From the NCBI GenBank assembly GCA_964353445.1, contig CAYGVN010000023.1, positions 1-10,314 on the forward strand: a stretch of 10,314 nucleotides of DNA, in the 5' to 3' direction. This document shows positions 1-10,314 of the stretch, in pieces. The notes beneath the pieces are model-generated. The model did no database searches. It had not been told where the DNA came from and saw nothing but the letters and a program-made list of their open reading frames with translations. The stretch is from Candidatus Woesearchaeota archaeon (GTDB lineage: Archaea > Nanobdellota > Nanobdellia > UBA10117 > CAYGVN01). Both the position numbers and the translations under genes were made by a program. The number at the start of each line of letters is the position of its first letter. Position 1 is the first letter of the stretch.

Positions 1-58
1 CTGGTAGAACGCTCGCATGGCATGCGAGAGGCCTCGGGTTCAAATCCCGACCAGTCCA
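1..58 (+). tRNA. tRNA-Ala (anticodon GGC), 5' part cut off by window edge
   Basis: Anticodon arm ctcgc-ATGGCAT-gcgag (12-28) with GGC at 19-21. Variable region aggcc (29-33). T arm tcggg-ttcaaat-cccga (34-50). Acceptor 3' strand ccagtcc (51-57) has U at position 70 (t55), the partner of the G3:U70 alanine identity pair. Discriminator A58; CCA not encoded. Confidence 0.85.
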
Positions 59-72
59 CTATTTAATGACAA

Positions 73-246
73 GCCGAGGTAGTTCAGTGGTAGAACACCA
101 GTCTCATACGGCAGCCTTTCTTTTTTGCGAAAGAAAGTCTCCCGGGCATCCAAAGAAAACGCTAGTGTATCGCTAACGCGATACACAAAGGATGCTCGCA
201 GAACTGAGTAAGCTGGATGTCGTGAGTTCGACTCTCACCCTCGGCA
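73..246 (+). tRNA. tRNA with CAU anticodon (elongator Met, or Ile2 if C34 is modified), interrupted by a 102-nt intron at 37/38
   Basis: Acceptor gccgagg (73-79) pairs fully with cctcggc (239-245). D arm gttc-agtggta-gaac (82-96). Anticodon stem ccagt (98-102) / gctgg (212-216), CAT at 105-107. Variable atgtc (217-221). T arm gtgag-ttcgact-ctcac (222-238). Discriminator A246. G1:C72 and the absence of a GGG/CCC anticodon stem argue against an initiator. Mature length is 72 nt after removing 109-210. Confidence 0.85.
109..210 (+). other. BHB intron of tRNA-CAU, 102 nt, internally structured
   Basis: 3-4-3 bulge-helix-bulge. The outer helix is the anticodon stem. 3' bulge taa (209-211), central helix ctca (103-106) / tgag (205-208), 5' bulge tac (107-109). 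Cutting after the second bulge nucleotide on each side gives 108|109 and 210|211. Internal helices: 116-123/130-137, 143-151/190-198, 165-173/178-186. Confidence 0.8.
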
Positions 247-252
247 TTAATC

Positions 253-1476
253 ATGGAACCCAAGACAGACATGGAGAAAACAAAGGAAAGGTGGGATATT
301 ACCAAGAAGTATCTCAAAAAAGCAGCAAAATTTACTAGGGACAAACTGATTCTTATCCGTCCCCTGAGCAAAAGGGAGGAATTTCAGCTTAGCAAAGTAA
401 ATCCTTACCTGTCTCCTAAAGAGCTTAAGCTATTGGTCAGTTTTATTAAACAGAAAAAGGCGAGCATAAACCTCAATAGGCTTGGCTGGTCTTTTCTTAT
501 AAGCGGAAAGGACTTGCTGCCTGAATTAATTTCAGATGCAAAAGAAATTCAGGAATTGAATGAGAAAATACAAAAAATATTTTACAAGGAAAGATTTGAG
601 GAATTTTCAGAGCGTGCTTTTGGAATCCTTCCTCAGCTTATTGCTCCTAATTTGGTTGGTTTATTGCATGCCAAGCAGGCTGCTGCTCTCCAGCTCTTTT
701 CTACAGAGCCGATTCACATTTTGCTCTTGGGAGACCCAGGAACAGGCAAGACAGAAATAATCCGCTCTGCAGCTGAACTTGCGCCGATTTCATCTTTCGG
801 GCTGGGAAGCGGAACATCTGGAGCAGGATTGTCAGCTACAGTTGAAGGAAAGAAGATTCTTCCAGGCCTTCTGCCTATGGCGCACAATGGAATCTGCTGC
901 ATTGACGAGCTTAACCTGATGAAAAAAGAAGACAGAGCTTCGCTGTACAATGCAATGGAAAAGGGCTTTGTTTCATACGATAAAGGCGGCAAGCACTATA
1001 AGTTTGATGCTAAGATTAAATTATTATCCACAGCAAATCCAGAAGGAGACAAATTTAAATCTTATAAACTTGAGGCAATTAAAGAACAGCTTCCTTTTGA
1101 TTCTGCTCTTCTCTCAAGATTTCATCTTATTTTGTTTATTAAAAAAGTAAGCCTGGAGAAATTTGCAGACATTGCTGAAAAGCTTATACTCAACGATAAA
1201 TCTCTGATAAATAAAGCAGATATTTCCTTTATTAAGAAATACATAGCATATGCAAGTAATTTGGACGCAAAGCTTCCTCATCACCTCAGCTCCAAAGTCA
1301 AAGAATTTGTAATGGAGTTAAAGAAAAATGAAGACAATCTGCCTTTTGAAATAACGCCGAGAACAATTCATGGAGTGCTTCGGCTTGCAAAAGCATCTGC
1401 GCTGATGGAACTGCGGGAAGAAATTGAGCCTAAGGATTTAGACAGAGTATTTAATATTTTTAACAAACAGCTTTAA
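253..1476 (+). CDS. MCM-family AAA+ ATPase, truncated form (AAA+ core only; no N-terminal OB/zinc domain, no C-terminal winged helix)
   Basis: 407-aa ORF. MCM-type motifs occur in canonical order: IAPNLVG..AKQAAALQLF, Walker A GDPGTGKT (aa 160-167, nt 730-753), SGAGLSA, Walker B CCIDELNLM with following DRASLYNAMEKG (aa 215 onward), sensor-1 STANP, arginine finger LLSRFHLI (aa 286-293), FIKKYIAYA, sensor-2 region ITPRTIHGVLRLAKA. Only about 125 aa precede the core and they contain no cysteine. An alternative start Met lies at nt 271. Confidence 0.8.
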   Translation: MEPKTDMEKTKERWDITKKYLKKAAKFTRDKLILIRPLSKREEFQLSKVNPYLSPKELKLLVSFIKQKKASINLNRLGWSFLISGKDLLPELISDAKEIQELNEKIQKIFYKERFEEFSERAFGILPQLIAPNLVGLLHAKQAAALQLFSTEPIHILLLGDPGTGKTEIIRSAAELAPISSFGLGSGTSGAGLSATVEGKKILPGLLPMAHNGICCIDELNLMKKEDRASLYNAMEKGFVSYDKGGKHYKFDAKIKLLSTANPEGDKFKSYKLEAIKEQLPFDSALLSRFHLILFIKKVSLEKFADIAEKLILNDKSLINKADISFIKKYIAYASNLDAKLPHHLSSKVKEFVMELKKNEDNLPFEITPRTIHGVLRLAKASALMELREEIEPKDLDRVFNIFNKQL

Positions 1477-1511
1477 TTATTATGAAAAAAATGTGTTGCA
1501 AAACTTCGCAC

Positions 1512-1517
1512 TTTTTT
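1512..1517 (+). terminator. Oligo-T (T6) tract, candidate archaeal terminator for the tRNA/MCM-like unit
   Basis: First run of at least 5 T downstream of the stop at 1474-1476. Archaeal RNA polymerase terminates at oligo-T tracts. No experimental support. Confidence 0.3.
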
Positions 1518-1577
1518 CCATTCCAACGACATTCGAAGAATTTCGTGGACCCACAAAAGCTTCGCTTTGGTTGGTTC

Positions 1578-1601
1578 CGAAAATTGGCTGCCCAATTTTC
1601 G
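1578..1601. repeat. Perfect 10-bp inverted repeat (hairpin or palindromic site) abutting the GT2 stop codon
   Basis: cgaaaattgg (1578-1587), loop ctgc (1588-1591), ccaattttcg (1592-1601). The GT2 stop codon is at 1602-1604. The repeat itself is certain; its function is unknown. Confidence 0.6.
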
Positions 1602-2294
1602 TTATTTCCAATACCCATTTGTTACAAGTTTTTGGCCTAATTTAATTCTGATATAATTTAGAATATAATATTTAAAGCTCATCAAATAGAAATTTTTTGC
1701 ATATCTTCTGTCAGATACCGGCATTTTAAGCTCTTTGAAAAATTTTACTCCTCCTTTTTTCCTTAGCCTATTACCCATGTCCCAATCTTCTAATATAGAT
1801 GTTTTAAATGGATTTTTCTCGAGAACTTCTTTTTTAAAAGTCATGTTTGCACCGCAGATAGACGGGCAATTAAAGTGTTGAAGAAATCTTGGAAGCCAAT
1901 TAGTGCATATTTTTAAAATACGCGCAACTTTTTTATTGCCACTATACGGAACAAGTGGACCACCTATGCAGATATTATTTTGCATCAAACTCAGGATTTT
2001 TTCTGTCCAGTCTGCAGGCGGTCTTGTGTCTGCATCGCAATAAGCAACAATATCCGCGGATGCCACTTTAAAACCCAGGTTGCGGGCATCGCATACACCA
2101 TTAGGCTTCAGCTCTAAGACTATTCTATCAGCATATTTTTTAGCAATTGAAAATGTTCTGTCAGAGGATTGACCGTCTACTACAATTATTTCAGGCCTTA
2201 TTTTTTGGCGGGCTATACATTTTAGGCACTCTTCTATCTCATTCTCTTCGTTTTTGGCAATTATCACTACTGAAAGTGCCGGTTGTTTTTCCAT
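1602..2294 (-). CDS. Family 2 glycosyltransferase (GT2)
   Basis: 230-aa ORF. N-terminus LSVVIIAKNEENEIEECL is typical of the GT-A fold. Also VVDGQSSDRT, a DxD-type CDADT motif, and a length typical of small GT2 enzymes. Confidence 0.85.
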   Translation of the reverse strand: MEKQPALSVVIIAKNEENEIEECLKCIARQKIRPEIIVVDGQSSDRTFSIAKKYADRIVLELKPNGVCDARNLGFKVASADIVAYCDADTRPPADWTEKILSLMQNNICIGGPLVPYSGNKKVARILKICTNWLPRFLQHFNCPSICGANMTFKKEVLEKNPFKTSILEDWDMGNRLRKKGGVKFFKELKMPVSDRRYAKNFYLMSFKYYILNYIRIKLGQKLVTNGYWK

Positions 2295-2302
2295 ACCTTT
2301 AC

Positions 2303-2335
2303 TTAAAAAGAGTTAAAAAACATAGTTTATAAATA
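2303..2335. promoter_or_regulatory. AT-rich divergent promoter region (candidate TATA boxes for tRNA-Thr and GT2)
   Basis: TTAAAAAA at 2313-2320 is centred about 28 nt upstream of the tRNA-Thr 5' end (2345). Palindromic TTTATAAA at 2326-2333 is centred about 35 nt upstream of the GT2 ATG (2294, minus strand). Assigned by sequence resemblance and spacing only. Confidence 0.35.
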
Positions 2336-2344
2336 TAATCTTAT

Positions 2345-2519
2345 GCCTCGGTGGCTCAGACGGTAGAGCGTTGCCTTGGTAACAGCAGCTTCTTTCTTTC
2401 GCGAAAGAAAGACGCTCCTGGGAATCTAGAAAGAAAGGCGTGCGACTTTTAGTCGCACAATACTGGGTTTCCACGGTCCAGAAAGGCAAAGGTCGCGAGT
2501 TCGATTCTCGCCCGGGGCT
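2345..2519 (+). tRNA. tRNA-Thr (anticodon GGU) interrupted by a 102-nt intron at 37/38
   Basis: Acceptor gcctcgg (2345-2351) / ccggggc (2512-2518) with one U-G pair. D arm gctc-agacggta-gagc (2354-2369). Anticodon stem ttgcc (2371-2375) / ggcaa (2485-2489), GGT at 2378-2380. Variable aggtc (2490-2494). T arm gcgag-ttcgatt-ctcgc (2495-2511). Discriminator U2519. Mature length 73 nt. Confidence 0.85.
2382..2483 (+). other. BHB intron of tRNA-Thr, 102 nt, related to the intron at 109-210
   Basis: The outer helix is the anticodon stem. 3' bulge aaa (2482-2484), central helix ttgg (2376-2379) / ccag (2478-2481) including one U-G pair, 5' bulge taa (2380-2382). Splice sites are 2381|2382 and 2483|2484; a one-nt shift gives the same product because of flanking A residues. 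Internal helices: 2391-2399/2404-2412, 2417-2427/2465-2476, 2440-2447/2451-2458. Confidence 0.8.
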
Positions 2520-2521
2520 TT

Positions 2522-3004
2522 CTATTTCAGAACTTTAATTGAAGGGTCTATGATTATTTCAATGCCTGCTTCCCTAAGCAGTTTTTCAGCCATTTCAAAA
2601 TTATATGGCTGATTGCGCAGTTTGGGAATAAGCTCATAAGTGTCTTTGTTCGAATATACTTCATCTGGAGTAATTAATTTAACCAGCCCCGCCTCGATAA
2701 TGGATTTTGCACAATCTGCACAAGGAAACCACTCATTTAAATATATATTTCCGCCTGAAGTTTTATAGCCAATTCGAGCAGCACGAGAGATTGCTCTTCT
2801 TTCTGCGTGAATTGTTGGGCAAAGATGCATCCCTTCTCCCGATGCATAGCCTTTTCTCAAACATTCACTGTGTTCAATTTTTATTGGAGGACCATTCCAT
2901 CCTGTAATATATCGCTGGTCAGCAGTTTCAATCAATGCGGCAACTGGATGCTTAAAACAAGCTCCTTCATCCAATGCTTCTTTTAGTAACTCATTGATTC
3001 TCAT
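2522..3004 (-). CDS. Deoxycytidylate (dCMP) deaminase, zinc-dependent cytidine/deoxycytidylate deaminase family
   Basis: 160-aa ORF with the catalytic signature HAERRAI followed by PCADCAKSI (HAE...PCxxC zinc ligands). The preceding CLRKG..SG...LC block is typical of dCMP deaminases. Its stop codon lies 2 nt from the tRNA-Thr 3' end (convergent). Confidence 0.85.
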   Translation of the reverse strand: MRINELLKEALDEGACFKHPVAALIETADQRYITGWNGPPIKIEHSECLRKGYASGEGMHLCPTIHAERRAISRAARIGYKTSGGNIYLNEWFPCADCAKSIIEAGLVKLITPDEVYSNKDTYELIPKLRNQPYNFEMAEKLLREAGIEIIIDPSIKVLK

Positions 3005-3029
3005 TACTACTTGTAATTCTAGAAGGGCA

Positions 3030-3040
3030 TTTATAAAAAT
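3030..3040 (-). promoter_or_regulatory. Candidate TATA box for the dCMP deaminase gene
   Basis: The minus strand reads ATTTTTATAAA. It is centred about 30 nt upstream of the ATG at 3004, which fits a leaderless or very short-leader archaeal mRNA. Confidence 0.45.
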
Positions 3041-3061
3041 TATTTAACAGAATAAAACAAA

Positions 3062-3676
3062 TTACTTCGCGCCGACTAATCTTTCCAAAGGACTTCTGCT
3101 CGTAGCGTGCTTAGTGAATGCCTGCTGGAAATCCTGCTTTTCAAGAATTTCTTCGTAGACTGAAATTGTTTCTTTCGGCACTAATTTTCGCCAAGGTCTC
3201 ACAGGTTTTTCATAAGCAGGTCGCTTGATAACATCTTGACAAGAATAATCAGGACGTTTAATTATATCATTGTAGAGAGATTCGCGAAATTCTGTTGCTG
3301 AAGTAAATGTACCTCTCTTGCGTTTTTTACATTTATAGTCATTAATTTTTGCAGCGAGTTTGTGAACAAAGTCTCCGCCATGATACACAGCATCTTGAGG
3401 CACATTAGATTTTATTCTATCTCGTCCTTCGATTATGTTTCTAGGGCTGGTCCATTTAATATAAAAAGAAAAAATATGAGCTTCATCTTCATCACAAAAA
3501 GCACGAATAACGTCATGAATCTCTTCGTATGTGAAAGGATTGTTAATGTTTCTTCCTTGAGGATGTACAATACCTATTGCAAATGGTTCAGGCATGGTTT
3601 TGAATAGATTTTCATGGTCTTTGTGGACCCCTTGGAATCTTCCTGTTGTCCACGACTTTATACTGGAAATATCCAT
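3062..3676 (-). CDS. Nucleotidyltransferase of the archaeal NMN adenylyltransferase (NMNAT)-like family, divergent
   Basis: 204-aa ORF. GRFQGVHKDH aligns to the archaeal NMNAT signature GRFQPFHKGH. NNPFTYEE aligns to ENPFTAGER, and TSATEFRE to the SxTxxR ATP-binding motif. The C-terminal approx 70 aa are basic and carry an imperfect repeat, DIIKRPDY / DVIKRPAY. Confidence 0.55.
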   Translation of the reverse strand: MDISSIKSWTTGRFQGVHKDHENLFKTMPEPFAIGIVHPQGRNINNPFTYEEIHDVIRAFCDEDEAHIFSFYIKWTSPRNIIEGRDRIKSNVPQDAVYHGGDFVHKLAAKINDYKCKKRKRGTFTSATEFRESLYNDIIKRPDYSCQDVIKRPAYEKPVRPWRKLVPKETISVYEEILEKQDFQQAFTKHATSRSPLERLVGAK

Positions 3677-3698
3677 AATTTATTGTCTAATAGTTATC

Positions 3699-3706
3699 TT
3701 TATAAA
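3699..3706. promoter_or_regulatory. Single palindromic TATA box (TTTATAAA) shared by two divergent genes
   Basis: Centre is at 3702.5. That is 26.5 nt from the minus-strand ATG (3676) and 27.5 nt from the plus-strand ATG (3730). It is the only strong TATA-like element in the 53-nt intergenic region. Confidence 0.5.
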
Positions 3707-3729
3707 TTGTATTTTTTTCTGTTAGAATT

Positions 3730-4050
3730 ATGGTAGTCAAAGTATACAAGGTTGAGAGAGCCAGTCTGAGCAAGCTGAAAGCTGTGCTGGAAGCCCAGGA
3801 GAAAGACGGCTTCATAAATGAATTTGCAAGGCACGGCTATAAACTCTGGGACGCAAAGACATTAGAGTTAGGCGGAGATGCATCATATCTTTACATAAAC
3901 GCTGAAAATGATTTTTTCAGCAGAAATGAAGGGAAACTGAAAATTACAGGTGTTCAGGCTCTCAGCGGAAAAGATTTGGAAAAAGTTAAAAAGAAAATAG
4001 AAGACGCAGAAGAAAGCGCTGAAGCTGGCTTGGGTGCTATATTCGGGTAA
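3730..4050 (+). CDS. Hypothetical 106-aa protein with a ribosomal-stalk-like acidic/hydrophobic C-terminal tail
   Basis: The ORF starts about 27 nt from the TATA box. The C-terminus EDAEESAEAGLGAIFG resembles the conserved tail of archaeal stalk proteins aP1/aP0 (acidic run followed by GLxALFG). I do not recognise the N-terminal approx 85 aa. Confidence 0.7.
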   Translation: MVVKVYKVERASLSKLKAVLEAQEKDGFINEFARHGYKLWDAKTLELGGDASYLYINAENDFFSRNEGKLKITGVQALSGKDLEKVKKKIEDAEESAEAGLGAIFG

Positions 4051-4063
4051 AAAAACATTTGTT

Positions 4064-4168
4064 GGGCCTGTGGTCTAGTGGTTATGACGTCGCCCTATAA
4101 AGTAAGCAAATTGTTTGCTTTAGGCGAGTACAAGGCGGAGGTCGCCAGTTCAAATCTGGCCAGGCCCA
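4064..4168 (+). tRNA. tRNA-Val (anticodon UAC) with a 32-nt non-canonical intron between positions 33 and 34
   Basis: Acceptor gggcctg (4064-4070) pairs fully with caggccc (4161-4167). D arm gtct-agtggtta-tgac. Anticodon stem tcgcc (4090-4094) / ggcgg (4134-4138). T arm gccag-ttcaaat-ctggc (4144-4160). Discriminator A4168. Removing 4097-4128 gives the loop CU-UAC-AA and a 73-nt mature tRNA. The exon sequence CCCUUACAAGGCGGAGGUC resembles archaeal tRNA-Val sequences as I remember them; I could not check this against a database. Confidence 0.75.
4097..4128 (+). other. Non-canonical BHB intron of tRNA-Val (32 nt)
   Basis: Inner helix taaag (4098-4102) / cttta (4118-4122). 5' bulge cta (4095-4097). 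Central 4-bp helix cgcc (4091-4094) / ggcg (4123-4126). 3' bulge agt (4127-4129). Outer helix is only 2 bp (4089-4090 / 4130-4131). Cuts after the second bulge nucleotide fall at 4096|4097 and 4128|4129. Confidence 0.7.
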
Positions 4169-4179
4169 CTTAAACAAAA

Positions 4180-4809
4180 ATGGACATAGGAAAATTGCTT
4201 TTTTCGTACAGCGAAAGAAAAGATGAAATTAAGGATAAACTAAAAGAATTCAGAGAAAATTGGAACAAGCCTGATAAGAAAATTTTTTCTGAGCTTTGCT
4301 TCTGCATCTGCGTTCCCCAGTCAAGAGCTGAGCTATGCGAAAAGGCAGTTTCAGAGCTTTCAAAAAGTGAAATTCTTTACACAGGCTCTGAAAAGCAAGT
4401 AAGAGACGGATTGAAAGGTGTGAGGTTTCCAAACAATAAAACGAGATTTATTCTGGAAGCAAGAGATTATTTTTCTTCTGGCAGCAAAATAAAAAGCAAG
4501 TTAAACACAGAAGATATTGCCGGCTTGAGAAACTGGCTAGCTGCCAATATCAGCGGGCTCGGCTACAAGGAATCCTCTCATTTTCTCAGAAATATAGGAT
4601 TTGGAAAAGATCTGGCGATTTTGGACAGGCACATTTTGAAAAACCTGAAACGTTATGGAATAATCAGTGCTATTCCAAAAACATTGACAAAGAAGAGATA
4701 TTTAGAAATCGAAGAAAAGATGGTAAAATTCTCTGAAAAAATCGGAATTCCCCTCGGAGAATTGGATTTAGTTCTCTGGTCAGAAGAAACAGGTAAAATT
4801 ATTAAATAA
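4180..4809 (+). CDS. ogg: 8-oxoguanine DNA glycosylase / AP lyase, archaeal Ogg2 family (HhH-GPD superfamily)
   Basis: 209-aa ORF, the length expected for Ogg2. It has FCICVPQS, the helix-hairpin-helix with catalytic Lys GLGYKESSHFLRNIG, and the Asp motif LAILDRHI. The start codon is 11 nt after the tRNA-Val 3' end. Confidence 0.85.
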   Translation: MDIGKLLFSYSERKDEIKDKLKEFRENWNKPDKKIFSELCFCICVPQSRAELCEKAVSELSKSEILYTGSEKQVRDGLKGVRFPNNKTRFILEARDYFSSGSKIKSKLNTEDIAGLRNWLAANISGLGYKESSHFLRNIGFGKDLAILDRHILKNLKRYGIISAIPKTLTKKRYLEIEEKMVKFSEKIGIPLGELDLVLWSEETGKIIK

Positions 4810-4823
4810 CTTAATCTTCTAAA

Positions 4824-5225
4824 CTATCTTTTCCATTTTTTAATAAAGGGTGAAAAATCGACTTGATATTTTGGTATTCCTATAGAAATTCCGTATTTTG
4901 TTGCTTCTGCATACTGCTGCTTACTTGCTCTATCTATTCTAAATATCTTATTTCTAAATATTATAAAATGTGTCTTATCATTCTTAAAATCCGCATACCA
5001 CTCACCATGTTTAGAGTCTAATGATTTGCTCAATTCTTCCGCAATTTTATCAGCTTGATTTTCTGGAACTTCAACAGTATGTAATGTCCATTGTTTTAGA
5101 TATGGTGTGTGATGCTTCTCGGTGACTTTTTCAATTTTGGTTTTGAGAATTTTAACTTTCTTCAGAACTTCTTTATTCTCAAGGCTTTCTTCAATTAGTA
5201 CGCCAATAAAACTTTTCTGTTTCAT
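4824..5225 (-). CDS. Hypothetical protein (133 aa), last gene of the minus-strand RNR/cobalamin run
   Basis: Long ORF with no competing frame. Its ATG is 12 nt downstream of the ferredoxin stop. I recognise no motif. Confidence 0.6.
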   Translation of the reverse strand: MKQKSFIGVLIEESLENKEVLKKVKILKTKIEKVTEKHHTPYLKQWTLHTVEVPENQADKIAEELSKSLDSKHGEWYADFKNDKTHFIIFRNKIFRIDRASKQQYAEATKYGISIGIPKYQVDFSPFIKKWKR

Positions 5226-5237
5226 GATTCAATTTAT

Positions 5238-5408
5238 TTAAGCTGTTATCGCCCCGACAGGGCAAGCCTCAGCAGCTGCCTTCAGGTCGCATTTGCCTTT
5301 TTGGTTTTTGACATGTGATTTGCCGTCTGGCCCGAGCTCAAAGACATTCGGGCAGAGAGCCACGCAGGCTCCGCATCCAATACATTTTGACTTATCAACT
5401 TTTACCAT
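5238..5408 (-). CDS. Small single-cluster ferredoxin (56 aa), not in the supplied ORF track
   Basis: Hand translation of the minus strand: MVKVDKSKCIGCGACVALCPNVFELGPDGKSHVKNQKGKCDLKAAAEACPVGAITA. CxxCxxC...CP plus a distal C...CP matches small Pyrococcus-type ferredoxins. GAGGA lies 5 nt upstream of the ATG. The ATG overlaps the upstream gene end as ATGGTAA. Confidence 0.8.
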   Translation of the reverse strand: MVKVDKSKCIGCGACVALCPNVFELGPDGKSHVKNQKGKCDLKAAAEACPVGAITA

Positions 5409-5920
5409 TCTATTCCTCTTTTGGCAGCCGGGAATTTCTTCGGCTGCTTAATCAGCTGTATTTCGTTTACGAAATCTGCTCTGTTTATTAATTCCTTTGT
5501 AGCATATCTGCCTGTTAAATAAACTGTTGTTGATGAAGGAACTATATTCAGAAAATCTATTATATCTTTTGTTTTCAGCAGGCCTCCGTGAACAGCAAGA
5601 TTAATTTCATCAAGAATCAGCAGAAACGGCTTCTTGTTAAGAGATTTGTAGGCAAATTCCAGACCTTTTTTTGCAAGCTGATAATCAACTGGCTTGAGAC
5701 TTTTTGGGTCTACAAATTCTTTTCTGCCAAACTGGTGTATTTCATAGTACGGACTGAGTTTTTTAGCAATTTTATACTCGCCAATATCCTTTCTTCCTTT
5801 CAGAAATTGAATAATAATTACTTTCCTGCCCTGGCCGACAGCACGCAGGGCAACTCCAAGGGCGCTGCTTGTCTTGCCAGCTCCCATTCCTGTCCATAAA
5901 TAAACTAATCCATGTTTCAT
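5402..5920 (-). CDS. cobA: ATP:cob(I)alamin adenosyltransferase, CobA/CobO/BtuR family
   Basis: P-loop GMGAGKTSSALG followed by RAVGQGRKVIIIQFLKG, then LLILDEINLAV, YLTGR and C-terminal GIEW. This order parallels Salmonella CobA. I prefer the start at 5920 (MKHGLVY), 1 nt after the nrdJ stop. The ORF-track start at 5980 would overlap the nrdJ 3' end by 59 nt. Confidence 0.8.
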   Translation of the reverse strand: MKHGLVYLWTGMGAGKTSSALGVALRAVGQGRKVIIIQFLKGRKDIGEYKIAKKLSPYYEIHQFGRKEFVDPKSLKPVDYQLAKKGLEFAYKSLNKKPFLLILDEINLAVHGGLLKTKDIIDFLNIVPSSTTVYLTGRYATKELINRADFVNEIQLIKQPKKFPAAKRGIEW

Positions 5921-5921
5921 C

Positions 5922-8015
5922 TTAAGCGTAAATTGGGCATGTTCCTGTCGGGCAGCCGCCTGCAAATTCTGACTCTGCATGCAGCATTTCTTTTTCTCCT
6001 ATATAGAGAACCTGCTCAGGCTTGCTGCCATAGCGGTAAACAGTTATGCCCTTGCACTTTAGGTTGTAAGCAAGCTCATAGGCTTTGGCGACATCAGCCA
6101 CGCCTGCTTTAGCCGGGAGATTTATTGTTTTTGACACAGAATTATCTGTGTATTTTTGGAAAGCAGCCTGCATCTTGACGTGCCATTCAGGCGCTATTTC
6201 AAGGGCTGTAACAAAAAGTTTTTGGATGTCTTTAGGCACGCCTTTCATTTTTTGAACAGAACCTTTTTTTGCGATGTCCATCATTAATTGGGCGGAGTAA
6301 AATCCTTTTTCTTTTGCTGTGTGCTCAAATATCCTGTTAATTTCAAGCAGCCTTCTGTCAGTCAGAACTTTTCTCACAAAAGAAATCGCAAACAACGGCT
6401 CGATTCCGGAAGAGACTCCGGCAATTATGCTCAGTGTTCCTGTCGGGGCTATAACTGTCGTTGTTGCATTTCTCATTGATTTATGTCCCTGCTTCTGCCA
6501 TAAAGATCCATGGAAGTTCGGGAAAGATCCTCTTGATGCTCCCAACTGCACCGACGCTTTACGGGATTCTTCGGCTATGAATTTCATTATTTTCTCTGCA
6601 GATTGCAGGGCTTTGGCTGAATTGTAAGGAATCTTCAGCAAGACAAACATGTCTGCAAGGCCCATAACGCCCAAGCCGATTCTGCGGTTTGCCTTTGTTG
6701 CACTTTCTATTTCAGGCAGCGGATAGACATTTGCATCTATTACATTATCTAAAAAGCGGACAGCTATTTGGACAGTTTTTTTCAATTTATCAAAATCAAT
6801 TTCATATCTCTGCCCTTTCTGTTTTAACATCTTGGTTAAATTAATAGAGCCAAGATTGCAGCTTTCATAAGGATGCAGATTTACTTCACCGCAAGGATTC
6901 GTGCTCTCAATCAGGCCTATGTTTGAAGTTGGATTTCTTCTGTTGATTTCATCGATGAATATAACCCCTGGGTCGCCTGTTTTCCAGGCAGACTCTGCAA
7001 TCAATTCCCAGACTTTTCTTGCATTTAATTTGCTGACAATTCTTCTATTTCTCGGGTTAATTAATTCATAATCTTTATTTTCCTTGACAGCCTGCATGAA
7101 TTTATCTGTAACTGCAGCTGAGATATTGAAATTGCTCAAGAAGCCCTTGCGCTGTTTTGCAGTTATAAATTCCAGAATATCCGGATGGTCTACTCTGAGA
7201 ACACCCATCATTGCTCCTCTTCTTTTTCCTCCTGCTTTAATAACATCTGTTGCTGTGTCAAAAACCCGCATGAAGCTTACAGGACCGCTGGCAACACCCA
7301 TTGTGCTCCTGACAATGTCGCCTTTTGGCCTCAGCCTTGAAAAAGAGTAGCCAACACCCCCGCCAGACTGCTCAATCAGTGCTGTTTGCTTTACAGCAGA
7401 AAAAATGCTGTCAAGCGAGTCTTCTATAGGAAGGACAAAACAGGCGGATAATTGCTTCAACGGCGCGCCTGCATTAAATAAAGTCGGGGAATTCGGCAGA
7501 AATTCAAGCTTGGACATTATTCTGAAAAAGTCGTCTTCTGCTTTGCGGGCATCTCCCTGATATTTTTTTTCAGCAGCTGCAACTGCCCGTGCAACTCTCC
7601 TGAACATCTGGCCTGGAGTTTCTATAATTTTTCCAGCTTCATTTCTTAAAAGATACCTGCGCTCGAGAACAGCCATTGCATTGTATGTAAGTTTTTCTTC
7701 AATGCCAAAAATCTCCCTTGCTCTCCTGATTTCAGCTTTCTTTTGCCTGAATTCAGCATAAATTTCTGCAACTCTTTTATTCCAGCCCTTAAGAACTTCT
7801 TCAACAATATTCTGCACGTCTTCTACAGAAGGAATTTTCTTTTCAAATCTGACAGCAAGTATGCTCACAACCCTGTCAGACAGCTTTTTTGAAGCCTTTC
7901 CGTCAGACACCCTTGCATCAAATAATGCCATATGAATTGCATGAGTGATTCTAGACTGGTCGAAATGGACTATACTGCCGTCTCGTTTTTTAATTTTTGT
8001 AAGTTTGGTGGCCAT
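5922..8015 (-). CDS. nrdJ: Class II (adenosylcobalamin-dependent) ribonucleotide reductase
   Basis: 697-aa ORF. ATP-cone-like N-terminus KIKKRDGSIVHFDQSRITHAI. Catalytic cysteine loop ESTNPCGEV. C-terminal redox tail GGCPTGTCPIYA. Overall class I/II large-subunit-like sequence with no separate radical-generating subunit gene nearby. Confidence 0.9.
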   Translation of the reverse strand: MATKLTKIKKRDGSIVHFDQSRITHAIHMALFDARVSDGKASKKLSDRVVSILAVRFEKKIPSVEDVQNIVEEVLKGWNKRVAEIYAEFRQKKAEIRRAREIFGIEEKLTYNAMAVLERRYLLRNEAGKIIETPGQMFRRVARAVAAAEKKYQGDARKAEDDFFRIMSKLEFLPNSPTLFNAGAPLKQLSACFVLPIEDSLDSIFSAVKQTALIEQSGGGVGYSFSRLRPKGDIVRSTMGVASGPVSFMRVFDTATDVIKAGGKRRGAMMGVLRVDHPDILEFITAKQRKGFLSNFNISAAVTDKFMQAVKENKDYELINPRNRRIVSKLNARKVWELIAESAWKTGDPGVIFIDEINRRNPTSNIGLIESTNPCGEVNLHPYESCNLGSINLTKMLKQKGQRYEIDFDKLKKTVQIAVRFLDNVIDANVYPLPEIESATKANRRIGLGVMGLADMFVLLKIPYNSAKALQSAEKIMKFIAEESRKASVQLGASRGSFPNFHGSLWQKQGHKSMRNATTTVIAPTGTLSIIAGVSSGIEPLFAISFVRKVLTDRRLLEINRIFEHTAKEKGFYSAQLMMDIAKKGSVQKMKGVPKDIQKLFVTALEIAPEWHVKMQAAFQKYTDNSVSKTINLPAKAGVADVAKAYELAYNLKCKGITVYRYGSKPEQVLYIGEKEMLHAESEFAGGCPTGTCPIYA

Positions 8016-8036
8016 TAAGAGGAAGAAGAAATTCCA

Positions 8037-8045
8037 ATTTATTAA
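8037..8045 (-). promoter_or_regulatory. Candidate TATA-like box upstream of nrdJ
   Basis: The minus strand reads TTAATAAAT, centred about 26 nt upstream of the nrdJ ATG (8015). It lies just downstream of the nrdG stop codon (8049-8051). This call is weak because the background is AT-rich. Confidence 0.3.
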
Positions 8046-8048
8046 GCT

Positions 8049-8771
8049 TTACTCAAGGGATGAAAATTTTCCTCTAAATTTTGTGTTTGGGACATTGTCC
8101 TGTGCTGCGTTTACAAAAGCTCTAATTTGTTTTTCATCAAAAGGCTTTAGGCTGGAGCAGCTTGCATCTAAAGTATTGTAGCTGACAAAATTTTGTATAA
8201 AATACCGGCGGCTACCTCTTATGTTGACTGAAATCTGCCTTATGTCTGCTGTGGTGTGCAGGCTGGGAACAACAGTTGTTCGGAATTCATAGTCTACAGG
8301 ATTTGTGAGCAAATATCTTGCGCTGTACTTAACTGCTTCAAAAAGCACTTCGCTCTTAATACCGCAGGCTTTTGAATAGGCGTTGAAATCCAACGGCGCC
8401 TTGATATCCATTGCAACATAGTCTACCAATTTAGAATTAACAAGCTGCTTGAGCATATTCGGATTTGTGCCGTTTGTATCAAGCTTTATGCTTATTCCTA
8501 TATCTTTTATTTTTCGGCAGAGTTCCGGCAAGTCAGGGTGAATAGTCGGCTCTCCGCCAGTTATGACCACACCATCGATAAAATCTTTATTAAATTCCAA
8601 AAACGTCTTGACTTTAGAAAATGGTATTGTCTGGAATTTTTTAGGCGCCTGTACAAGCTTGAAATTATGGCAGAAAGGGCATCTGAAATTGCAGCCAGGC
8701 AGGAAAATCACAGCTGAAACCTTGCCGTCCCAGTCTAAAAATGACGTTTCTAAAAAACCCTTAATTTCCAT
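8049..8771 (-). CDS. nrdG: Anaerobic ribonucleotide reductase activating protein (radical SAM)
   Basis: 240-aa ORF. The N-terminus MEIKGFLETSFLDWDGKVSAVIFLPGCNFRCPFCHN carries the CxxxCxxC radical-SAM cluster motif in the NrdG-type context. ITGGEP is also present. nrdD lies next to it. Confidence 0.85.
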   Translation of the reverse strand: MEIKGFLETSFLDWDGKVSAVIFLPGCNFRCPFCHNFKLVQAPKKFQTIPFSKVKTFLEFNKDFIDGVVITGGEPTIHPDLPELCRKIKDIGISIKLDTNGTNPNMLKQLVNSKLVDYVAMDIKAPLDFNAYSKACGIKSEVLFEAVKYSARYLLTNPVDYEFRTTVVPSLHTTADIRQISVNIRGSRRYFIQNFVSYNTLDASCSSLKPFDEKQIRAFVNAAQDNVPNTKFRGKFSSLE

Positions 8772-8792
8772 GTTATTTATTTGGACGTTAAA

Positions 8793-8802
8793 TTTTTAAA
8801 AA
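8793..8802 (-). promoter_or_regulatory. Candidate TATA box upstream of nrdG, inside a 14-nt AT palindrome
   Basis: TTTTTAAAAA (8793-8802) sits within the perfect palindrome aatttttaaaaatt (8791-8804). It is centred about 26 nt upstream of the nrdG ATG (8771). Confidence 0.35.
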
Positions 8803-8805
8803 TTC

Positions 8806-9090
8806 CTAAGCTGAACCGTGTTCAGCTTGGCCCATCGAAAGCAGAGCTTTCGATAGGGTTTCACTTGAAGGAATTTCTCCTCTCCAGCCAGTTACTTCCT
8901 GCTCTTTGTTGTCAACTATAATTATGCTGGGGGTGGATAGAACAGAAAAGAAAGCTGCTTCTGCGAGCCCGTCCCTGCCGCCGATATCCCAGTATTCTAC
9001 TTTTATGTTCTGCTTCTCTAACTCTGCGCCCAGCTCTTTTGCTGCCGGGCATTTCGGACATGTTTTTGAAACAAATATTTTTATTACCAT
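8806..9090 (-). CDS. Small thioredoxin-fold redoxin (glutaredoxin/NrdH-like), CPKC active site
   Basis: 94-aa ORF. MVIKIFVSKTCPKCPAAKE has the beta1-CxxC-alpha1 arrangement. STPSIIIV matches the cis-Pro loop region of the thioredoxin fold. Confidence 0.8.
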   Translation of the reverse strand: MVIKIFVSKTCPKCPAAKELGAELEKQNIKVEYWDIGGRDGLAEAAFFSVLSTPSIIIVDNKEQEVTGWRGEIPSSETLSKALLSMGQAEHGSA

Positions 9091-9093
9091 TTT

Positions 9094-9163
9094 AATTCAC
9101 TTCTCTTTTGCCTGTGAATTGAAACCAGCGAATTTGCACTGCAAATTCGTGCAGTTTATTCAC
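9094..9163 (-). promoter_or_regulatory. Structured intergenic element between nrdD and the redoxin gene (palindrome plus three mutually complementary heptamers)
   Basis: Perfect 10+1+10 palindrome cgaatttgca-c-tgcaaattcg (9129-9149). It is flanked by aaac (9122-9125) / gttt (9154-9157) and gtgaat (9114-9119) / attcac (9158-9163). A third copy, aattcac (9094-9100), is also complementary to gtgaatt (9114-9120). The structure is seen directly; its function is inferred. Confidence 0.4.
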
Positions 9164-10314
9164 CCAAAGTGTTCTGTACTCCTGTACCTGTCTCTAAGCT
9201 CAGCTATTTTGCCTTTGTTCCAGCTGCTCGTCTTCGAGAAAAACCCTGTTACTCTTGTAATCCCTTCAACTTTCTTTGAGCCGCAGAACTGGCATTTAGC
9301 CTTGATACCCCTGCCAACTTTCTGGCAGTCCAGACAGCTTGTAAATTCTGGGCTGAAAGCAATTTGGTCGTTCAATGTATTATAAAATGTCTTTTTGACA
9401 AAGTTTGCAATTGATTCTGGATTAGGCGAGCTTTCTCCGAGCCAGACATGAGAGAGCGAGCCTGCTTCTATCATAGGATGGAAAAGTCCTTCTGATTTTA
9501 CTCTTTCTATCGGGCTAATTGGAGTGGATATATTCAGGTATGTAGAATTTGTGTAGTACACTTCATTCTTTCCTACATTCCCTTTTACAACCTGGCTGGC
9601 CTGTATTGGAGAGCTCTTAAGGTCAAGCTTAGCCAGTCGATAGGCAGTTGATTCTGCAGGGGTTTGCTCTAGGACAAAATGCATGCTGTGTTCTTTTTCT
9701 AAGCGCTCGCATTCTTTTTTCATATGTGCAATTACTTTGAGCCCGAACTTGAGGGCTTCTGTTGATTCGTGCATCTGCTGCCCAAAGTGATATTGTACTA
9801 ATTCATTCAGGCCCAGCATGCCAATCAAGAAAGTTGCTCTGTGCAGCCTTAGATAGCGCTCGCCATCAAGATTCATTGCCAAAAGATTAAGAGGGCCTTT
9901 GTTTTCTAGATTAATCAGCTTTTCTATGAATTTCTTTTTTTGCTCGTGCGCTTTTGCAGCCAGCTCCATCCGCTGGGTTATTATCTCAAACAATCTGTTG
10001 TCATCCCTGTCTGCTTCAAATGCTGCTCTCGGCAGATTGATTGTTACATTCTGCAGTGCAGAAAATCTCATTTTCCAAGGCTGTTTCGCATCTTCTATGT
10101 CAGAGCGCTCCAGCTTGAAGGCTAAACGGCAGCACTCGGAAATTTTTGCTGTCTGGCCCCTGTCAAAAACGTAATAGGTGTTGCCTTTTTCTGCTGATAC
10201 ACTTGAAATTAAATTCAAGAATTCTTCATGCCCTTCTGTATTGAAAAATCGCTCTGTCATGTGAACTTCCGGCTTTGGGAAGAAAAACGGACGGCCGACA
10301 GCATCTCCTTTATA
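9160..10314 (-). CDS. nrdD: Class III (anaerobic, glycyl-radical) ribonucleoside-triphosphate reductase, C-terminal 384 aa; 5' end lies beyond the window
   Basis: The frame stays open from 10260 to the window edge (YKGDAVGRPFFFPKPEVH precedes the ORF-track Met). C-terminal zinc ribbon CLDC...CQFCG, followed by the glycyl-radical motif ITRVTGFFS. ISECCRL is a probable catalytic Cys loop. Confidence 0.9.
   Translation of the reverse strand, partial: YKGDAVGRPFFFPKPEVHMTERFFNTEGHEEFLNLISSVSAEKGNTYYVFDRGQTAKISECCRLAFKLERSDIEDAKQPWKMRFSALQNVTINLPRAAFEADRDDNRLFEIITQRMELAAKAHEQKKKFIEKLINLENKGPLNLLAMNLDGERYLRLHRATFLIGMLGLNELVQYHFGQQMHESTEALKFGLKVIAHMKKECERLEKEHSMHFVLEQTPAESTAYRLAKLDLKSSPIQASQVVKGNVGKNEVYYTNSTYLNISTPISPIERVKSEGLFHPMIEAGSLSHVWLGESSPNPESIANFVKKTFYNTLNDQIAFSPEFTSCLDCQKVGRGIKAKCQFCGSKKVEGITRVTGFFSKTSSWNKGKIAELRDRYRSTEHFG

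Follow-up and report, generated by a model that had tools for sequence, protein, structure and literature searches.

Archaeal bulge-helix-bulge (BHB) introns are cleaved out by the tRNA splicing endonuclease, and a ligase joins the exons. The closest precedent for the movement of such introns between genes comes from the Thermoproteales, whose tRNA introns Fujishima et al. reported to have been transposed (2010, Mol Biol Evol 27:2233; see the summaries in PMC4090602 and PMC10714607), by a mechanism that is unknown (PMC4090602). Broad-specificity (L3-loop) splicing endonucleases are reported for DPANN archaea, as are many disrupted tRNA genes, in Woesearchaeota and Pacearchaeota among others, and the predicted tRNA sets of some DPANN lineages are incomplete (PMC5829648). 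Here, we analyze 10,314 nucleotides from a Candidatus Woesearchaeota archaeon (contig CAYGVN010000023.1, positions 1 to 10,314; this whole stretch is the window below). Within it, introns of 102 nt interrupt a tRNA(CAU) gene (109–210) and a tRNA-Thr(GGU) gene (2382–2483). Both are members of a structured BHB intron family in tRNA genes of DPANN archaea (Woesearchaeota / 'Nanoarchaeia'). The family has a covarying fold, occupies multiple sites, and is present in some tRNA genes and absent from their orthologues. We think it likely that it is a multicopy intron cassette that has moved between tRNA genes, in which a conserved core replaces the outer BHB helix, a tail supplies a site-specific central helix, and endonuclease and ligase excise the whole.

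The two introns and their family

The original prediction, made from the letters of the window, had placed a 102-nt intron at position 37/38 of tRNA-CAU and had named an intron in tRNA-Thr as its counterpart. The tRNA model and the spliced cloverleaf confirm the coordinates, splice position and length of the first, and the tRNA-Thr gene is interrupted at the same 37/38 position. Excision of both introns leaves normal tRNAs of 72–73 nt with the anticodons CAU and GGU. The spliced tRNA(CAU), a normal 72 nt, is syntenic and orthologous with intron-less tRNA-CAU genes at two related loci (L016 and L017). In the list, R1 is a covariance model of the family built from nine copies, and R2 is a second model, searched over 242 kb.

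73–246, plus strand: tRNA(CAU) gene; Rfam tRNA 55.3 bits, with a 104-nt insertion in the model alignment
73–108, plus strand: 5′ exon of tRNA(CAU), tRNA positions 1–37; elongator Met or Ile2, not initiator-like
109–210, plus strand: intron copy W1, 102 nt, subfamily A; R1 72.5 bits (E 4e-13), R2 69.1 bits (E 3e-15)
211–246, plus strand: 3′ exon of tRNA(CAU), from the Rfam tRNA model and the spliced product
2345–2519, plus strand: tRNA-Thr(GGU) gene; Rfam tRNA 50.5 bits, with a 104-nt insertion in the model alignment
2345–2381, plus strand: 5′ exon of tRNA-Thr(GGU)
2382–2483, plus strand: intron copy W2, 102 nt, subfamily B; R1 97.2 bits, R2 92.8 bits
2484–2519, plus strand: 3′ exon of tRNA-Thr(GGU)

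A pattern of conserved blocks, scanned over one genome per GTDB species, matched four DPANN metagenome-assembled genomes (MAGs; Woesearchaeota, 'Nanobdellati', Nanoarchaeota UBA10117) and two chance loci. Scanning the JGI and ENA metagenomes with a three-block pattern contributed three further true loci. The pattern scans found the element solely in DPANN MAGs and in groundwater or sediment metagenomes (L002, L004, L005, L006, L011, L013 and L014); viral contigs scanned with the family pattern gave 0 matches. Loci L001, L003, L007–L010, L012 and L015 were dropped on reading, being chance matches in unrelated, mostly GC-rich coding DNA.

Model R1 added diverged copies within the known loci (in tRNA-Asp and tRNA-Ala, in a further T-loop, in a further D-loop, and in the D-loop of tRNA-Gly) and two more in a relative of L011 reached via its RpoB″ protein. 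Sixteen copies are clear, scoring 43.6–105.6 bits with R2 and 36–108 bits with R1. A marginal R2 match at 21.8 bits came from L020, which is a relative of the window, and on reading it proved to be a member of 88 nt, diverged in sequence, at 37/38 of tRNA-Gly(GCC). The total is thus 17 copies on 9 contigs, all inside tRNA genes, and the covariance-model search, which covered 242 kb of related DNA, turned up none elsewhere. Calling W1 the first of two copies was therefore an understatement, since the family numbers at least 17.

At 37/38, the element is found in tRNAs CAU, Thr, Asn, Lys, Gly, Asp and Ala. Five copies lie in the T-loop (~59/60; those of L002 and L006/L013 included) and three in the D-loop (L004 included). 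The hosts comprise at least 10 tRNA species (CAU, Thr, Asn, Lys, Gly, Asp, Ala, Pro, Tyr and others), and several host genes carry two or three introns. In every copy the element is preceded by A. The range of hosts, the three non-homologous positions, and the presence and absence among orthologues described below bear out the earlier suggestion that W1 belongs to a mobile intron family.

On the window, ARAGORN found 0 of the 4 tRNA genes, and the Rfam tRNA model was used in its place. The default Rfam scan in turn missed the multi-intron tRNA hosts in L002, L004, L005 and L006. Since both programs miss these genes, standard annotation will under-count tRNAs in carriers.

Fold and covariation

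Each window intron, folded alone with RNAfold, forms hairpin P1, long-range helix P2 and hairpin P3 in both the minimum-energy and the centroid structures. The energies are −37.4 kcal/mol for W1 and −36.1 kcal/mol for W2 (z = −4.76 and −4.12); of 200 dinucleotide shuffles, not one is as stable as either. Computed folds thus recover the three helices that had been proposed by eye. The predicted fold is the same when the intron is folded as a circle, and for the whole pre-tRNA-CAU a cloverleaf with BHB and P0–P3 is computed at −64.8 kcal/mol, 2.4 kcal/mol from the unconstrained minimum of −67.2. W1 and W2 have a mean column identity of 78%, mostly in the 5′ half, and share their sequence blocks in identical order, as had been noted; their P3 hairpins are unrelated in sequence.

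A further helix, P0, had been overlooked, and it is supported by covariation across the family. P2 had been given as 9 bp; the long-range helix stands, but the family consensus is 7 bp. P0 competes with the two bottom pairs of the longer version, and P2 is therefore more likely 145–151/190–196. The parts of the two introns are as follows.

109–115, plus strand: W1 P0, 5′ strand (CGG-C-AGC); 109–111 pair with 142–144, 113–114 with 139–140
116–137, plus strand: W1 P1 hairpin; pyrimidine strand 116–124, loop 125–128, purine strand 129–137
138–144, plus strand: W1 P0, 3′ strand (UCUCCCG), from covariation
145–151, plus strand: W1 P2, 5′ strand (GGCAUCC), pairing with 190–196
152–164, plus strand: W1 purine tract R2 (AAAGAAAA) and linker, 5′ side of the P2/P3 internal loop
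165–186, plus strand: W1 P3 hairpin, 9 bp (165–173/178–186), loop UAAC
190–196, plus strand: W1 P2, 3′ strand (GGAUGCU)
197–210, plus strand: W1 variable tail; 205–208 (UGAG) pair with exon bases 103–106 (CUCA)
2383–2385/2418–2420 and 2387–2389/2414–2416, plus strand: W2 P0; A2382 is the third bulge nucleotide
2390–2399/2404–2413, plus strand: W2 P1
2421–2429/2463–2471, plus strand: W2 P2
2430–2439, plus strand: W2 purine tract R2
2440–2447/2451–2458, plus strand: W2 P3
2478–2481, plus strand: W2 tail CCAG, pairing with exon UUGG 2376–2379

Across the family, the element measures ~88–105 nt and consists of a conserved 5′ half and a 3′ half that is free in sequence with its pairing kept. P0 begins 0–1 nt past the 5′ splice site and is made of 3 bp, an invariant C/C mismatch and a conserved AGC/GCU step. 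P1 follows with 9–12 bp, its 5′ strand always pyrimidines, its 3′ strand always purines, and its loop not conserved. P2 (6–11 bp) abuts the P0 3′ strand with no linker. The purine tract R2, of consensus AAAGAAA, occupies the 5′ side of the P2/P3 internal loop, and after it come P3 (a hairpin of 5–10 bp, often with a UNC triloop), a short A-rich stretch (J3/2), the P2 3′ strand, and a variable tail of 7–17 nt.

Because plain MAFFT misaligned the 3′ half, a structural alignment of 16 copies (A3, gaps as N) was made, which MAFFT returned unchanged; its P0 columns are anchored by sequence, not by folding. An independent Infernal alignment of 14 copies, restricted to P0, P1 and P2 (A4), served as a check. 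In A3, 96.5% of 483 cells are standard pairs, compared with 77.2 ± 1.1% in column shuffles and 38–53% in slid registers. Both sides change in 22 of 38 pairs, amounting to 102 cells; shuffles yield 33.7 cells and slid registers at most 16, and 0 of 500 shuffles reach 102. For A4 the paired fraction is 93.7%, and double-sided changes affect 14 of 23 pairs (shuffles 6.4, slid registers at most 2). The helices proposed for W1 thus covary across the family, and covariation in the aligned sequences supports all four, P0, P1, P2 and P3.

The helices differ in how they vary. The outer pairs of P0 in A3 are CG12/AU1/GC1/UA1/UG1, GC11/AU4/UA1 and GC14/AU1/GU1, with the same pattern in A4. In W2, for example, a compensatory A2384/U2419 replaces the usual G-C. 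The C/C mismatch (C112 opposite C141 in W1) is invariant in 16/16 aligned copies. In all 16 copies P1 is built of U-A, C-G and U-G pairs only and its strands never flip. P2, found in 14 of the 16 copies and absent from L005b and L004b, shows the exchanges C-G/A-U, A-U/G-C and U-A/C-G. All P3 cells are paired in the 16 copies; of the 9 pairs of this helix, 8 vary on both sides, with strand flips among the changes. The AAAGAAA tract is conserved in all copies, and the diverged L020 copy has it in a hairpin loop. The tract is not always exposed, since it can pair locally with pyrimidines in L006a (3836–3940; GAAAGCG-UA-CGCUUUC) and in L004a (L004 3066–3169; GCUUCGCUUC).

Two features to which a function might be attached were examined. 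The original prediction had pointed to two mutually exclusive pairings of the CTTTCTTT tract. Both are possible in the sequence, but copy-specific covariation is lacking: for pairing of the second purine tract with the pyrimidine strand of P1, or a triplex of the two, a copy's own pairs average −7.0 kcal/mol and cross-copy pairs −7.6 kcal/mol (permutation p = 0.94). The second purine tract is more complementary to the pyrimidine strand than its shuffled composition (−3.3 ± 2.1 kcal/mol), and we regard the pairing as possible but unsupported. The CCCGGG palindrome, considered as a functional site, proved to be only the point where the 3′ strand of P0 meets the 5′ strand of P2; in other copies it becomes CUUGGA, CUACGA, CCCAGG or CCUGGG, together with its pairing partners.

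At the DNA level P1 is a long perfect palindrome (26 bp in L006b). This raises the question of whether the element might be mobile as DNA, in the manner of a miniature inverted-repeat transposable element or of IS200/IS605, with hairpins recognised by a transposase and with survival in tRNA genes owed to BHB removal. The constant A before the element, hairpins close to both ends, and the suggestion that intron gain in Thermoproteales took place at the DNA level (PMC4090602) would agree with such an origin. We consider it very improbable, however. G-U pairs are frequent (6 at the first P2 pair, for example) and serve as intermediates in the covariation, and on the other strand they would be A-C mismatches; the fold is thus specific to the tRNA sense strand, which argues that selection acts on RNA rather than on a DNA palindrome. 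In addition, the 3′ end is variable and tailored to each host loop, the element lacks terminal inverted repeats and target-site duplications and has no associated transposase, and the copies are confined to tRNA genes in the 242 kb searched.

The possibility that the intron carries a modification guide of the box C/D or H/ACA type, or that it is a ribozyme, self-cleaving or self-splicing, is effectively refuted. The archaeal tRNA-Trp intron, which carries a box C/D guide, gives a precedent, and CUGA occurs near the 3′ end of 3 copies. Yet a C box within one mismatch is absent from 15 of 16 copies, and CUGA is found only in exon-pairing tails that face a CUCA- or UUCA-type exon. The view that W1 is not of the box C/D class is thereby upheld, no C/D family in Rfam matching the element. 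With Rfam 15, no family besides tRNA matches the element in the window at E ≤ 1, and in L014 and L002 at E ≤ 10 there is no sense-strand match on it, the only match being an antisense one to wcaG (E 2.7). The family has no conserved ACA and no pseudouridylation pocket, and its ~100 nt are far below the size of group I or group II introns.

Splice sites and spread among tRNA genes

On its 3′ side, W1 has canonical geometry: the central helix 103–106/205–208 is followed by a bulge of U209, A210 and, past the splice site, A211, ahead of the stem 212–216. On its 5′ side, the bulge consists of U107 and A108 plus C109, and covariation pairs C109 with G144. The intron ends form no conventional outer helix with each other; that position is filled by P0, which meets the central helix and P2 in a three-way junction. 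Of the textbook 3-4-3 BHB that had been proposed, the central helix and 3′ bulge therefore stand and the 5′ side does not.

In all 37/38 copies, four tail bases are complementary to tRNA positions 32–35 of the copy's own host, and the 3′ bulge is formed by two intron bases and nucleotide 38, beside the anticodon stem. This half is canonical. The matched bases are:

CAU: host bases 32–35 CUCA, tail UGAG
Thr: host bases 32–35 UUGG, tail CCAG
Gly: host bases 32–35 UUGC, tail GCAG
Asp: host bases 32–35 CUGU, tail ACAG
Lys: host bases 32–35 CUUU, tail GAAG
Ala: host bases 32–35 UUUG, tail CAGA

W2, L005b and the T-loop copies have a 3-nt 5′ bulge that leads directly into P0. W1 and five more of the 37/38 copies differ from these: there the third base of the bulge doubles as the first base of P0 and covaries with its partner.

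We propose that the element would work as two modules. In the conserved 5′ core, P0 sits at the 5′ splice site and runs into P1, and the abutting P2 encloses the AAAGAAA tract and P3. In the variable 3′ tail, four bases pair with the first bases of the host loop, giving the central BHB helix and the 3′ bulge. The splicing endonuclease would cut both bulges and the ligase would join the exons, as in known archaeal BHB splicing. P0 and the core would substitute for the outer helix h′, and this substitution would let the same cassette leave a D-loop, an anticodon loop or a T-loop. Spread between tRNA genes would proceed by transposition or by a conversion-like process, and the family persists as several subfamilies coexisting in single genomes.

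Several observations bear on the spread. Introns at non-homologous positions are 60–90% identical in their cores. Homologous introns are thus found at non-homologous sites of tRNAs that diverged before the last common ancestor, and the element must therefore have spread between tRNA genes. Conservation is mosaic, with a mean pairwise identity of 62% in the core and 30% in the remainder. For example, L002a and L006a are orthologous copies in the T-loop: one indel and one substitution separate them over their first 55 nt, yet their P3 hairpins are unalignable. Clustering of the cores gives at least three subfamilies, which coexist within genomes; W1 (A) and W2 (B) are each nearer to copies of other MAGs than to each other. 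Near-identical 5′ cores occur in L011 and in the MAG of L005/L028, whose RpoB″ proteins are only ~70% identical.

Relatives of the window (MCM-like proteins 57–64% identical) keep its order of genes: tRNA-Ala(GGC), tRNA-CAU, MCM-like gene, glycosyltransferase, tRNA-Thr(GGU). Model R1, run over the syntenic loci L016–L023 (135 kb), found no copy; R2 later gave the one diverged copy of L020. Around the two window introns and at tRNA-Gly(GCC), the state of each gene is:

tRNA-CAU: no intron in L016 or L017; not found in L020; an unrelated 34-nt intron in L022
tRNA-Thr: not found in L016; an unrelated 12-nt intron in L017 (gene at 12004–12087); no intron in L020 (11315–11386); an unrelated 37-nt intron in L022 (11297–11406)
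tRNA-Gly(GCC), L011: subfamily A copy at 37/38
tRNA-Gly(GCC), L014: subfamily B copy at 37/38
tRNA-Gly(GCC), L020: diverged copy at 37/38
tRNA-Gly(GCC), L022: unrelated 28-nt intron at 37/38
tRNA-Gly(GCC), L004: copy in the D-loop, the anticodon loop being uninterrupted

These patterns could also be read as the remains of an ancient burst, after which the introns were immobile and inherited vertically, with the core kept for splicing in cis. The member at 37/38 of tRNA-Gly(GCC) in three lineages, diverged in sequence, would fit such a history, as would the orthologous pair L002a/L006a and the several subfamilies per genome, which suggest age. We nevertheless judge this account quite unlikely. 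The syntenic tRNA-CAU and tRNA-Thr genes of relatives lack the element, the tRNA-Gly of L004 has a D-loop copy in place of one at 37/38, and the 5′ cores of L011 and the MAG of L005/L028 are near-identical, against only ~70% identity of their RpoB″ proteins. Moreover, an ancient burst still needs movement between non-homologous sites.

A number of points weigh against the cassette that we favor. Excision and the splice-site positions are predicted from sequence. Most 37/38 copies, W1 included, keep a 2-nt 5′ bulge by covariation and not the canonical 3 nt, and in several T- and D-loop copies the central helix is reduced to 3 clean base pairs and an A/A mismatch, or the bulge gives way to an internal loop. 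With such atypical bulges and central helices, splicing would need a broad-specificity endonuclease; the relaxed T- and D-loop geometry would fit the enzymes of this kind reported for DPANN archaea. The outer helix needs few base pairs, as the 12–37-nt introns of relatives demonstrate, and the cassette leaves the asymmetry of P1, the C/C mismatch, the purine tract and P3 unaccounted for. The element has no linked reverse transcriptase or homing endonuclease, and vertical descent with loss could explain part of the distribution, given that 37/38 of tRNA-Gly is occupied in three lineages. Finally, the A3 columns for P2 and P3 were set manually, guided by the folds of the individual sequences.

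The features of the core that splicing does not need, to judge from relatives in which 12–37-nt introns suffice, leave room for a bound protein or for a trans-acting, possibly circular RNA. It has to be asked, then, whether the excised intron, probably circularised by RtcB, is itself a functional non-coding RNA (a protein scaffold, or a regulator that addresses pyrimidine-rich targets through AAAGAAA), with tRNA genes serving mainly as its platform for expression and processing. Such a role would be compatible with the cassette. Conservation exceeds what a splicing arm requires, the 5′ core being ~96% identical in orthologues whose P3 is unalignable; P1 strands never flip while those of P3 flip freely; the C/C mismatch and the AGC/GCU step are invariant; and the purine tract is unpaired in an internal loop or, in L020, in a hairpin loop. 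There is also the precedent that archaeal BHB introns can circularise and that the tRNA-Trp intron is a box C/D guide acting in trans (PMC4090602). On the other hand, no target was identified and no known guide or ribozyme signature is present, and an essential trans-acting RNA would not be expected to tolerate the loss of P2 in L005b and L004b or the potential for local pairing of the tract in L004a and L006a. On balance, we regard this role as unlikely. A further reading, to which we would give only a slim chance, is that the core (P0 with its C/C mismatch, the never-flipped P1 and the exposed AAAGAAA) is a sensor or protein-binding domain that gates many pre-tRNAs as a splicing regulon, or is a source of circular regulatory RNAs in genome-reduced symbionts. 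If so, the element would be more than a selfish cassette.

In L005, a tRNA gene (1937–2128) holds a short 37/38 intron and a GC-rich T-loop intron of ~103 nt, whose interior is unrelated to the family. Its site and ends (A before CGG at the 5′ end, CCGAGAAAG before UCUCG at the 3′ end) are the same as those of L002a and L006a, and thus other long intron families share site-specific ends. The adjacent tRNA-Ala(UGC) gene (2129–2358) has three introns, one of which, a 22-nt D-loop intron (CGGCUUUCAAAGCCGCAGGAAA), occupies the site of the 104-nt copy of L004. The two have the ends CGGC...AAAGCCCGCAGGAAA in common. The 22-nt intron looks like a deletion derivative of the long element, and the comparison hints that long cassettes may decay to minimal BHB introns.

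In relatives of the window, a separate family of ~37-nt introns lies at 37/38 of different tRNAs (L017 9355–9468; L022 8115–8226 and 11297–11406). Its sequences are UCGCGAAAAGUUCCUUUUGCGGGACUGUCUGCGACAGU and variants having GUCUGCGACA in common, and it is a second case of related introns across tRNA genes. Open reading frames with weak matches to LAGLIDADG_3 (homing-endonuclease-like) adjoin tRNA genes in L016 (8153–8839) and L017 (12094–12738), and also in L018 and L019; the one in L017 is directly downstream of tRNA-Thr(GGU).

The genes of the window are archaeal (MCM AAA+ core, archaeal-type N-glycosylase/DNA lyase, NrdJ and NrdD ribonucleotide reductases), and the nearest homologues of its proteins are labelled DPANN, Nanoarchaeia or Woesearchaeota. 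The MCM-like gene (253–1476) begins 7 nt 3′ of tRNA-CAU and encodes 407 aa that comprise the MCM AAA+ core and lid alone, an N-terminal domain being absent; the protein is a member of a large conserved DPANN family of ~380–440 aa (809 homologues at E ≤ 1e-20). Of the four tRNA genes that the window contains according to the Rfam tRNA model, two complete the list:

1–58: 3′ part of tRNA-Ala(GGC), from the Rfam tRNA model; no insertion seen
4064–4168: third tRNA, Rfam 55.5 bits, with an intron of ~33–35 nt that forms an 11-bp hairpin

The anticodon of this third tRNA is ambiguous, the model placing CUAU ahead of the insert. Its 5′ stem strand, UCGCC, has two candidate 3′ partners, GGCGA within the insert and GGCGG beyond it, and the intron may therefore be at a non-canonical position.

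Comparison with known systems

Searches of the full-text literature yielded no description of this family, nor is there one in Rfam. It thus appears to be undescribed, and looks to be the first BHB intron family with a covariation-supported conserved fold across three tRNA loops and many genomes. How archaeal tRNAs gain introns has been an open question since the Thermoproteales report, and a conserved module joined to a variable targeting tail offers a concrete substrate for testing reverse-splicing against DNA-level models. Conservation beyond the needs of splicing suggests that a protein binds the element or that the RNA has a role after excision, in organisms whose genomes are very small. 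A covariance model of the family would recover some hidden DPANN tRNA genes and so sharpen estimates of MAG completeness. We rate the interest for archaeal RNA processing as moderate to high, and the practical value lies in finding hidden tRNA genes.

Like a canonical intron of the hBHBh′ type, in which h′ is the outer helix, the 37/38 copies have a 4-bp central helix (positions 32–35 with the tail), a 3-nt 3′ bulge with the predicted cut after its second base, and a normal cloverleaf once spliced. Unlike it, they leave the intron ends unpaired and place a self-contained P0/P1 hairpin at the 5′ splice site; in most copies the first P0 pair includes the first intron base, and the result is a three-way junction. 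The present intron is also 5–8 times longer than typical hBHBh′ introns.

With the box C/D intron of tRNA-Trp in Haloferax and other Euryarchaeota, the element shares a length of ~100 nt and conservation for reasons beyond splicing, and that intron is the precedent for an intron-borne functional RNA able to circularise. It differs in lacking C, D, C′ and D′ boxes and a K-turn signature, and in occupying many tRNAs and three loops. The tRNA intronic circular RNAs (tricRNAs) of metazoans are eukaryotic, and they form no repeated family over many tRNA genes and positions and have no conserved core fold (PMC4536317).

The nearest likeness is with the transposed introns of the Thermoproteales. In both cases, homologous introns are spread over several kinds of tRNA gene and over more than one position, and the lineages concerned combine splicing endonucleases of broad specificity with heavily disrupted tRNA genes. 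The transposed introns of the Thermoproteales are reportedly much shorter and grouped by sequence similarity alone. Whereas those introns belong to the Crenarchaeota, the present family belongs to the DPANN superphylum and spans several MAGs, and its members are ~100 nt long, with a covarying four-helix core and the combination of a conserved 5′ module and a variable 3′ module.

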